Below are positions 54,821 to 55,956 of a stretch of DNA of 64,000 nucleotides, one piece after another; positions within the stretch are counted from its first letter, which is position 1, and each line of letters starts with the position of its first letter. The position numbers and the translations under genes are program-made. This DNA comes from an uncultured Candidatus Saccharibacteria bacterium. GTDB lineage: Bacteria; Patescibacteriota; Minisyncoccia; UBA6257; 2-01-FULL-56-20. The stretch covers positions 18,113 through 82,112 of the forward strand of contig CAYHXC010000003.1 of assembly GCA_964360585.1 (NCBI GenBank). Direction: 5' to 3'. The notes beneath the pieces are model-generated. The model saw nothing but the letters and a program-made list of their open reading frames with translations. It searched no databases and was not told where the DNA came from.

Positions 54821-55905
54821 AAGCGAGCCAGCTTGCACGAGTAACTCATGGATAGTAAGCGAGCCTAACTAGCAAAGTAACTCACCGAAGGCAAGCGAGC
54901 CACTTTGACAGAGAAACTCATATTCAGTGAGCGAGCTGCTACCGAAAAGAAACTCAAAACAAGAGCGAGCCATCAGCACAGATAAGCTCACGTCGTGGAA
55001 GCGAGCCACTTCATTCGAGAAACTCAAGGTCAGAGAGCGAGCTGTCAACCCTGAGCAATTCAAGACCAAAAAGCGAGCCATCTTCCGAGAGAAACTCAAG
55101 GCAGATGAGCGAGCCATGCCCCAGAAGAAACTCGAAAGTGACAAGCGAGTCTTGAATGGGGAGTAACTCAAGCTTTTAGAGCGAGCCTTCCGAAGGCAGA
55201 AACTCAATGGTGATGAGCGAGCCAGTACGCCTGAAAACCCCTTGAAGGTGAGCGAGCCTCGAGAAAAGAGAAACTCAATCTTGGCGAGCGAGCCCGTCCT
55301 GAGGAAAAACCCATACGACGCGAGCGAGCCCGAAGACTGCAGTGACTCAAAGGGAACGAGCGAGCCAAGTTGTTGGAGAAACTCGTGGAAGACAAGCGAG
55401 CCGAGCCGTGAAAGTAATTCATCGGACGGAAGCGAGCCTCGAGAAAAGAGGAACTCAATCTTGGCGAGCGAGCTAGTGGATAAGAGAAGCTCAACGGAAA
55501 GGAGCGAGTCAAGGTCGGCAAGAAGCTCATCAAGAGAAAGCGAGCCGATCATCTAGAGAAACTCTTACGCTAAGAGCGAGCTGACCAGCTCAAGAAACTC
55601 AAGCAAGAAGAGCGAGTCTTCAGTCTGAAGAAACTCAATGGCCACAAGCGAGCCAGTAAGTTTAACCAACCCATGTAGGGGAAGCGAGCTTGGAATCAGA
55701 AGTAACTCAAATGACGAGAGCGAGCCATCATTTTCAAGAAACTCAATGAAAATGAGCGAGCTAAGTTTCGCTAGAAACTCGTTGAAATGGAGCGAGCCAT
55801 TGGCAAACAAGGAACTCACGGACAAAGAGCGAGCCACATTTGTTGAGAAAATCAAAGGAGAAGAGCGAGCCACATCTTGTGAGAAACTCATCAAGAGAAA
55901 GCGTC
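54821..55905 (+). repeat. strictly 36-bp-periodic tandem array, about 30 units, each with conserved AGCGAGCC and AGAAACTCAA blocks separated by variable sequence
   Basis: AGCGAGC(C/T) or AGCGAGTC recurs at 36-bp intervals (by manual count 27 of 30 intervals are 36 bp; the others 34, 35, 37); second block (AG)AAACTCAA begins about 20 bp after each 8-mer; intervening 10-12 and about 8 nt essentially unrelated between units; plus strand purine-rich; no frame stays open across the array; strong terminator about 20 bp downstream. Confidence 0.8.
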
Positions 55906-55921
55906 TCTCCAAATTTTTTAC

Positions 55922-55956
55922 AACCGAACACATCTGTGTTCGGTTTTTTCATTTTT
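55922..55956 (+). terminator. rho-independent terminator (AACCGAACACA-TCT-TGTGTTCGGTT + TTTTCATTTTT)
   Basis: 11-bp stem, 3-nt loop, T-tract; immediately after the 36-bp array, orientation implies plus-strand transcription of the array. Confidence 0.8.

Follow-up and report, generated by a model that had tools for sequence, protein, structure and literature searches.

We analysed a stretch of 64,000 nucleotides from an uncultured Candidatus Saccharibacteria bacterium (GenBank assembly GCA_964360585.1, contig CAYHXC010000003.1, positions 18,113 to 82,112 of the forward strand). This whole stretch is called the window, and all positions are counted from its first letter. Its plus strand carries a gene for a 352-aa protein (53749–54807), and an array of short repeats with a period of 36 bp begins 14 nt past the stop codon of that gene. 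The locus is flanked by chromosomal housekeeping genes, namely those for RNase Y and cofactor-independent phosphoglycerate mutase (iPGM), and no replication or partition genes were found among the flanking genes. At the locus the GC content is raised only slightly. We consider it very probable that the array and the preceding gene form a complete dual-repeat TIGR-Tas locus of the TasA (nuclease-less) type, located in a chromosome of the Patescibacteria, or candidate phyla radiation (CPR). The architecture of the array and the family membership of the protein come directly from our analysis. This kind of system has been known since 2025, and the locus is not a new type of element. The array had been picked out in a first-pass annotation, made by a model from the letters alone, which knew of no described element with two short blocks in fixed phase; dual-repeat TIGR arrays, published in 2025, have this architecture.

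The units of the array begin with a conserved block, AGCGAG[CT]. We counted 30 occurrences of this motif on the plus strand between 54822 and 55864 and 11 in the remaining ~63 kb of the 64-kb window. The spacing of the units is exactly 36 bp in 26 of 29 cases; units 4, 12 and 28 depart from it with spacings of 34, 35 and 37 bp, respectively, in agreement with an earlier manual count of about 30 units with three deviations. Per-position information content was computed over the 27 regular units. Unit positions 1–8 (AGCGAGCC) carry 1.2–1.9 bits and positions 19–27 (AG[A/T]AACTCA) carry 0.6–1.9 bits. Positions 10–17, 29–33 and 35 carry ~0 bits, and a purine bias is seen at positions 18, 34 and 36.

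A parse of 9+9+9+9 nt (block, spacer, block, spacer) fits 27 of the 30 units. The second block lies 18 nt after the first, not about 20 bp as had been proposed. The segments between the blocks had been described as unrelated from unit to unit, which the values of ~0 bits bear out; their lengths, given as 10–12 nt and about 8 nt, are 8–9 nt each. These two spacers, A and B, are free in sequence and strictly kept in length. No codon phase makes the variable positions informative. The earlier view that the constraint acts on the nucleotides is supported. It was also right on the start of the array 14 bp past the upstream stop, on the purine-rich plus strand (measured here at 62% purine) and on the strong plus-strand terminator (here a hairpin with a 10-bp stem and a T run).

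The same 30 units, with 1–2 single-nucleotide polymorphisms and an identical protein, are present in two independent assemblies (ENA Hainich groundwater; Logan). This agreement rules out an assembly artefact, which had been named as a possible source of the pattern. No unit-number polymorphism was seen among the window, ENA Hainich and Logan samples. Tandem Repeats Finder picked up only two fragments of the 30-unit array (2.3 and 5.2 copies; 54820–55133). The literature reports that standard repeat tools miss TIGR arrays, and this partial detection shows why such arrays escape routine annotation.

TIGR stands for tandem interspaced guide RNA, and TIGR-Tas, an RNA-guided system that targets DNA, was first reported in 2025 (Faure et al., Science 2025; PMC12045711). 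A dual-repeat TIGR array has a unit of 36 nt with edge and loop repeats of 8–12 nt and spacers of ~9 nt, and it is processed to 36-nt tigRNAs (PMC12045711). The array in the window follows this definition, with two alternating repeats of 9–10 nt, spacers of 8–9 nt and a unit of 36 nt. In the TasR structure, each repeat opens with 'UG' (box D) and closes with 'CCA' (box C); between the boxes, the loop repeat is rich in A. The repeats in the window read AG-CGAG-CCA and AG-AAAC-TCA; that is, both start with AG and end with YCA. Since AG-AAAC-TCA is the A-rich block, the first block is the edge repeat and the second block is the loop repeat.

The published repeats can be compared with those of the window. 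SpTIGR from a Salicola phage has the edge repeat AAGCGAGCCA, the loop repeat AAGACAACCA and 8-nt spacers, and the TaTIGR and ParTIGR repeats are TGCGAGCCA and TGAAACCCA (Table S1, PMC12045711). The edge core of the window, AGCGAGCCA, is identical to the core of the SpTasH array and one base off the TaTasR/ParTasR edge TGCGAGCCA. Judged by their letters, AGCGAGCCA and AGAAACTCA are in the same repeat family as SpTIGR, TaTIGR and ParTIGR. The SpTIGR array opens with a half edge, AGTCA (Table S1, PMC12045711), and this half edge together with the 36-nt product points to processing at AAGCG^AGCCA. At its 3' end the array in the window reads TCAAGAGAA-AGCG up to 55903 and continues with TCTC. The closing AAGCG is a 3' half edge with the terminator after it, and it ends at the processing site deduced for SpTasH. 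CPR bacteria are a known niche of TIGR systems, and a 2026 preprint counts 20,096 tas loci and 6,685 annotated arrays.

The 352-aa protein is identical to a 'hypothetical protein' of a Patescibacteria metagenome-assembled genome (MAG) at NCBI. A phmmer search against the PDB returned TaTasR 9MTY, the cryo-EM structure of TaTasR–tigRNA–DNA, at E = 4.9e-6. With a profile of 45 homologues, 9MTY was found at E = 3.9e-24 and SpTasH at E = 4.1e-13. The AlphaFold2 model of the protein has a pLDDT of 87.7 and a pTM of 0.84. When this model was used in Foldseek, the top 11 matches were all TasH/TasR chains (probability 1.0), followed by the IS621 bridge recombinase. Pfam gave no domain in the protein or in any of 89 retrieved homologues, with weak zinc-ribbon matches. 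PADLOC (for the protein) and Rfam (for the array) gave nothing significant; Pfam, PADLOC and Rfam contain no Tas or tigRNA models.

The gene had been labelled Tnp_20 and its product a degenerate IS110/Piv-like recombinase. Neither label is kept here, because no Pfam Transposase_20 match was obtained even at E ≤ 1 and the protein is a Tas effector with a Nop-type RNA-binding domain and without DEDD/RuvC. A relationship to the C-terminal domain of IS110 does exist, but it is remote and visible through structure only. We also tried an IS110 transposase or bridge recombinase as an identification of the protein and rejected it on account of the lack of PF01548 or PF02371 matches at E ≤ 1, the lack of a folded N-terminal DEDD domain, and the housekeeping flanks.

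In the AlphaFold2 model, the disordered residues 1–40 are followed by a helical hairpin (residues 41–98) and then by the Nop C-terminal domain. The helices of the hairpin (41–68 and 74–98, pLDDT >94) align with the coiled-coil region of TaTasR. We aligned the protein with FpTasA, SpTasH, TaTasR and ParTasR, whose sequences were taken from Table S1. The alignment contains no counterpart of the N-terminal HNH or RuvC domains of TasH/TasR, and Pfam gave no nuclease match. Because such an N-terminal domain is lacking, the protein is of the TasA type. Y322 and H332 align with Y289 and H296 of SpTasH, and both are at least 90% conserved in the family. The residues Y289/H296 are the published metal-independent catalytic dyad for pre-tigRNA processing (PMC13421893). 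According to a preprint, the Tyr/His dyad is present in dual-repeat systems and absent in stem-loop systems. In the phmmer alignment, W209 appears to take the place of TaTasR Y238, whose aromatic ring is reported to stack on the first tigRNA base that pairs.

Two insertions are specific to the clade of the window protein. The beta-rich insertion is not present in FpTasA, SpTasH, TaTasR or ParTasR, and the characterised Tas proteins of the alignment either lack the zinc-ribbon insertion or have a far shorter one. Each Cys of the zinc ribbon is at least 90% conserved in the 45 homologues and invariant in the 12 closest. Further conserved residues are D136, R145 and E280. We found no mention of a zinc ribbon in the TIGR literature searched for 'zinc'. 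The coordinates of all features are collected in Table 1.

Table 1. Features of the TIGR-Tas locus in the window (positions counted from the first letter of the window).
Feature	Position	Strand	Description
Weak candidate promoter of a tasA–array transcript	53626..53654	+	TTGACG, 17 nt, TATTAA; read by eye
tasA-type gene	53749..54807	+	352-aa TIGR-associated Nop-domain protein without nuclease domain
Helical hairpin, predicted coiled-coil dimerisation element (residues 41–98)	53869..54042	+	AlphaFold2 model
Clade-specific beta-rich insertion (residues ~127–168)	54127..54252	+	Alignment; strands 130–133, 148–153 and 160–168 in the model
Clade-specific Cys4 zinc-ribbon insertion (residues ~240–285)	54466..54603	+	C253, C256, C268, C271; alignment and conservation
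Predicted pre-tigRNA-processing Tyr/His dyad, C-terminal loop (Y322 to H332)	54712..54744	+	Alignment
Possible vestigial loop-repeat-like AAAAACCCA and 7-nt spacer	54806..54821	+	Overlaps the tasA stop and abuts the first edge repeat
Dual-repeat TIGR array	54822..55903	+	30 units: edge AGCGAGCCA, spacer A, loop AGAAACTCA, spacer B
Terminal 3' half edge repeat (A)AGCG	55899–55903	+	Last element of the array
Intrinsic terminator	55922..55951	+	10-bp stem (AACCGAACAC/GTGTTCGGTT), 4-nt loop, T run; hairpin 55922–55945

We gathered ~60 loci with homologues of the protein from assemblies, GTDB genomes, JGI metagenomes and IMG/VR, and the search alignment comprised 12 sequences. In nearly all of the ~60 loci, mostly from CPR bacteria, a matching 36-nt array adjoins the homologue. 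The first-pass annotation had proposed a functional tie between the array and the adjacent zinc-ribbon protein related to IS110, and this tie is supported. The period is 36 nt in almost all of the arrays and 34, 35 or 39 nt in a few. No conserved partner gene was found across the homologous loci, whose neighbourhoods differ.

The family consensus is G-AG-CGAG-CCA, N8, G-AG-nAAn-CCA, N8. We found that the ninth 'spacer' position, just before each repeat, is G in 85–88% of cases (438 non-redundant units, L001–L060). The near-fixed G indicates that the layout of the family is one of 10-nt repeats and 8-nt spacers, as in SpTIGR. The window array has become less strict here and accepts either purine, G or A. 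Three loci (L016, L018 and L043) have CTA as box C of the edge repeat and of the loop repeat alike. Such covariation of the two repeats is expected if they are bound by a symmetric dimer.

The homologues are labelled mostly as CPR (Brennerbacteria, Saccharibacteria, Yanofskybacteria, Patescibacteria), with a small number of other MAG labels and a single predicted viral contig. Some of them (L006, L011, P0051, P0086) carry labels of Woesearchaeota (DPANN archaea), Desulfobacterales or Chloroflexota MAGs. The labels outside CPR reflect either binning errors or transfer outside CPR.

Among the characterised systems, SpTIGR-TasH of Salicola phage CGphi29 (9W03, 9W04, 21KL) shares with the window the edge core, the 36-nt unit, the box D AG and the aligned Tyr/His dyad, and its layout of 10-nt repeats and 8-nt spacers is matched at the family level of the window protein. 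In both systems the array lies directly downstream of the gene; the half edge is found at the start of SpTIGR and at the end of the window array. The loop repeats differ (AAGACAACCA in SpTIGR, AGAAACTCA in the window). SpTasH has an N-terminal HNH nuclease and cuts DNA, whereas the window protein has only a disordered N-terminus of 40 residues, and the beta-rich insertion and the Cys4 zinc ribbon belong to the window protein. SpTIGR-TasH resides in a phage and the window locus in a CPR bacterial chromosome.

TaTasR (9MTY) and ParTasR have repeats that are 1–2 bases from those of the window and the same unit of 9+9+9+9 nt, and ParTasR, from Parcubacteria, likewise belongs to a CPR bacterium. 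However, both possess an active N-terminal RuvC nuclease that the window protein lacks, and their box D is UG instead of AG. TaTasR also has a Trp at the position of the processing Tyr of the window protein. FpTasA (Flavonifractor plautii), PlTasA and MbTasA are solo Nop-domain effectors without nuclease, like the window protein. FpTasA is a dual-repeat system, as in the window, and its identity to the window protein is ~22%. MbTasA comes from a Minisyncoccota bacterium, that is, from a CPR host as in the window, and it is an RNA-guided DNA binder and transcriptional repressor. PlTasA and MbTasA have stem-loop arrays, in contrast to the dual-repeat array of the window. In the TIGR literature searched, none of the three TasA proteins is described with the zinc ribbon that the window protein has.

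More distant likenesses were also considered. The IS110 bridge-RNA recombinases IS621 and ISCro4 use a guide RNA with two split guide segments, as TIGR does, and their RNA-binding domain alone resembles the window protein in structure. They differ in that the window locus has no DEDD/RuvC catalytic domain and no transposon ends, and in that they use one bridge RNA while the window has an array of many short guides. Box C/D snoRNPs (Nop5/Nop56/58) have, according to the literature, the Nop domain with a coiled-coil dimer in common with Tas proteins. They guide 2'-O-methylation of RNA with fibrillarin and L7Ae, whereas the window system would, by analogy, target DNA, and it has a tandem array and no K-turns. 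CRISPR-Cas resembles the window locus in its interspaced repeats, variable guides and nearby effector gene, and probably in the processing of a precursor into unit lengths. TIGR differs in that two kinds of short repeat alternate and each guide has two spacers, which pair with opposite DNA strands; it uses no protospacer-adjacent motif (PAM) and has neither cas genes nor a known adaptation module.

The mechanism as a whole is inferred by homology to the characterised systems. The tasA gene and the array would be transcribed on the plus strand, probably as one transcript that ends at the terminator (55922–55951). The strand of the gene and the position of the terminator fit the earlier suggestion that the array may be read with or just after the upstream gene. 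A consensus promoter scan made no call at the candidate promoter (53626..53654). To our knowledge, CPR promoters are poorly defined. By analogy, TasA would form a dimer through its coiled-coil hairpin, and the Nop domain of each protomer would bind one repeat, contacting its first bases (box D, AG) and its last bases (box C, CCA or TCA). Y322/H332 would cut the precursor within each edge repeat (AAGCG^AGCCA), which would release up to 30 tigRNAs of 36 nt with the order 5'-AGCCA, spacer A, RAGAAACTCA, spacer B, RAGCG-3'. FpTasA is known to bind 36-nt tigRNAs.

The two spacers are predicted to pair with opposite strands of adjacent halves of a 16–18-bp DNA site, and no PAM would be needed. Binding without cleavage is expected because the protein has no HNH or RuvC domain. 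Thus the likely function, judged from related systems, is RNA-guided DNA binding without cleavage. The outcome would be sequence-specific binding and bending of DNA, leading to transcriptional repression or to interference with a phage or another mobile element. RNA-guided repression has been reported for a CPR TasA (MbTasA) and for catalytically dead TasR, with stem-loop arrays.

It might be supposed that the locus is a TIGR-Tas system that does cut, in which cleavage of the RNA-specified target, as a form of defence, would be due to the insertions or to a nuclease acting in trans. The two conserved insertions, with D136, R145, E280 and the four Cys, have no assigned function, and some nucleases contain zinc ribbons. 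However, Pfam, PADLOC and the structural search gave no match to HNH, RuvC or another nuclease, the homologous loci share no conserved neighbour gene, and the published TasA proteins are without nuclease activity. A cryptic nuclease activity in the insertions has no positive support, and we regard a cutting system as quite improbable. The array could also be a platform with many binding sites on DNA or RNA, such as iterons, a partition site or an RNA sponge, with the variable segments as mere linkers. Thirty equally spaced conserved sites beside a nucleic-acid-binding protein would suit such a platform. Yet that protein is homologous, in sequence and in structure, to effectors that use such units as guides, and the repeats are the same as in tigRNA arrays whose processing was shown experimentally. 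The spacers keep a length of 8–9 nt with free sequence, as guides predict, the processing dyad is conserved, and the housekeeping flanks contain no replication or partition genes. A binding platform is therefore very hard to credit, and the sponge and the iteron or partition array among the earlier candidate roles are unsupported. The closest of the four earlier candidates was a targeting repeat associated with a degenerate IS110-like protein, of which the targeting repeat stands and the recombinase does not.

The remaining earlier candidate was a decayed gene for a protein with 12-aa repeats (ERA...EKLK), and a mis-assembled gene of this kind, or the minus-strand open reading frames (ORFs) of 227 and 122 aa, may be considered with it. 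Minus-strand ORFs are indeed annotated over the array in other assemblies and in L001, and ERA/EKLK repeats occur in the annotated N-terminus of P0005. Nevertheless, stop codons number 5/16/21 in the plus frames and 18/27/3 in the minus frames of the array, so that every frame has at least 3, and the three changes in unit length break the frame. Whatever the codon phase, the information at the variable positions is ~0 bits. In homologous arrays the repeat blocks alone are preserved, and none of the spacer pairs of the window array recurs there. Three assemblies agree on the sequence, and long minus-strand ORFs are expected on a pyrimidine-rich strand. The stops, the frame-breaking indels, the flat variation over codon phases and the lack of conservation outside the blocks exclude a repeat-protein gene, in accordance with the first-pass annotation, which had itself argued, from blocks identical at every codon position and from the frame-breaking unit lengths, against a recently duplicated protein repeat; we give this possibility almost no weight. 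A degenerate or miniature CRISPR array would share the regularly interspaced repeats, the variable spacers and the terminator. It is contradicted by the two alternating repeats of 9–10 nt, the 8–9-nt spacers, the 36-nt period and the lack of an Rfam match for the array. The adjacent protein is not a Cas protein and has no PADLOC match, and the neighbours are tasA, RNase Y and iPGM. The earlier rejection of CRISPR, made from the repeat architecture and the lack of cas genes, was right, and the chance that the array is CRISPR after all is negligible.

Some observations weigh against the TIGR-TasA identification and its proposed function. The tested repressor MbTasA has a stem-loop array and not a dual-repeat array. 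The first edge repeat of the window (54822–54830) is complete, without the 5' truncation that is typical of TIGR, though not obligatory. The symmetry of edge and loop is imperfect, as box C is TCA in the loop repeat and CCA in the edge repeat. No role has been assigned to the two insertions, which could bring in a further activity or alter an existing one. We searched the window, with the array masked, for self-targets of the 30 spacer pairs in both geometries, with gaps of 0–2 nt and up to 3 mismatches, and the matches equalled those of shuffled controls. The geometry B+rc(A), with rc for reverse complement, was deduced from the description of the first paired tigRNA base at the unwinding junction. 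Exact 18-mers of this geometry from units 13, 3, 8 and 14 had 2, 1, 1 and 0 independent matches in IMG/VR, and the controls (mirrored geometry and two scrambled sets) had 0, 0 and 1. No IMG/VR contig was matched by two spacers. The matches show no excess over the controls and are compatible with chance. This null outcome agrees with the literature, in which short TIGR spacers are reported to yield many false-positive matches.

Within the TIGR-TasA identification, a special role of this clade, so far undescribed for TIGR systems, can be imagined, for instance the multiplexed RNA-guided regulation of the cell's own genes, or of those of the host cell during episymbiosis, with the zinc ribbon as an extra contact to DNA, RNA or protein. 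The clade is set apart by its chromosomal site with housekeeping flanks, a dual-repeat TasA with the zinc ribbon and the beta-rich insertion, unusually long arrays (30 units in the window) and purine-rich, C-poor spacers. We consider such a role unlikely; it would differ from simple interference with phages or plasmids.

The gain for annotation is that a 'hypothetical protein' and spurious ORFs become a recognisable RNA-guided system. The TIGR architecture was recovered independently by the first-pass annotation from sequence alone, without tools. The locus offers a clear natural case of a dual-repeat TasA in a CPR chromosome with the predicted processing dyad intact, and its array is among the longer ones, with 30 guides compared with a typical 5–15. 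The Cys4 zinc ribbon with the beta-rich insertion, the length of 30 units, the duplicated unit 13/18 and the purine-rich, C-poor spacers are mildly new, with none of them established. A protein of 352 aa with 36-nt guides and no PAM could interest builders of compact programmable DNA binders. The current picture of TIGR-Tas is left unchanged by the locus.

The composition of the spacers was calculated over the 438 non-redundant units. Spacer A has A.28, C.18, G.33 and T.21, and spacer B has A.33, C.13, G.35 and T.19. Accordingly the spacers are purine-rich and C-poor on the RNA strand throughout the family, including the window array. Random double-stranded targets would not be expected to give such a bias. 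It may be explained by a constraint at the RNA level or by a target preference (an R-rich half and a Y-rich half). Spacers A and B of the same unit show no overall complementarity (permutation, p = 0.17). An exception is unit 26 (55719–55754), where, at an offset of 1 nt, 8 of 9 positions of spacer A (TCATTTTCA) are complementary to spacer B (ATGAAAATG), which would make the composite target near-palindromic. One of the IMG/VR matches lies inside a phage glycosyltransferase gene.

Units 13 (55251–55286) and 18 (55431–55466) have identical spacer pairs (18/18 nt) and differ at one base of the loop repeat. In the assembly L061, 55451 is changed from G to A, and the two units are fully identical. 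The units between them are not duplicated, which points to a single-unit duplication or to repeated acquisition, and the pair is relevant to the way in which TIGR arrays gain units. The spacer B of unit 20 recurs in unit 30 (TCAAGAGAA; 55530–55538 and 55891–55899). No spacer pair of the window is shared with other loci. Across the family 10 shared 9-mers were observed against 3.2 expected, an apparent excess that is inflated by the near-fixed G at position 9.

At the 5' border of the array (54806–54821), AAAAACCCA has 7 of 9 positions in common with the loop repeat AGAAACTCA and is similar to the loop consensus of the family, GAGAAACCCA. This degenerate loop-like block and its 7-nt spacer-like segment may be a vestigial half unit. 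Minus-strand genes were called over the array at 54869–55552 (227 aa) and 55565–55933 (122 aa), and in L001 at 7093–7614 (minus strand, 173 aa). Minus-strand calls on TIGR arrays are spurious ORFs on the pyrimidine-rich strand. The start annotated for P0005 extends into an array upstream of it, which gives the protein an artefactual N-terminus of ERA/EKLK repeats.

The arrays of some relatives depart from the common form. The array of L020 (2541–2971) has a period of 39 and an enlarged loop repeat (gaGtgAGAAACcA), and that of L043 (2532–4324) has a period of 35. L032 has a second array (6254–6579) with a period of 34 and other repeats (GGCGAGCCAGA/GGGAAACAG). Besides the main downstream array, dispersed mini-arrays of 4 units are found up to ~2.5 kb upstream of the tas gene in L031, L032, L033 and L038; examples in L031 are 107–219, 1421–1547 and 2280–2404. 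The predicted viral contig, L060 (IMGVR_UViG_3300036768_001410), is the only homologue found in IMG/VR and has small arrays on both sides. Its neighbours are an HTH_17 protein and a DnaN-like sliding clamp on one side and an N6/N4 DNA methylase on the other. This setting suggests that at least one member of an otherwise chromosomal-looking CPR clade may be phage-borne.

Elsewhere in the window, a lone tigRNA-like match was seen at 48213, within an ORF of 354 aa, and was taken as chance. A 20-nt tandem unit is present in 2.1 copies at 61258–61298 (CAAGGCTTCAGCCGGGCAAG) and is unrelated to the TIGR array.

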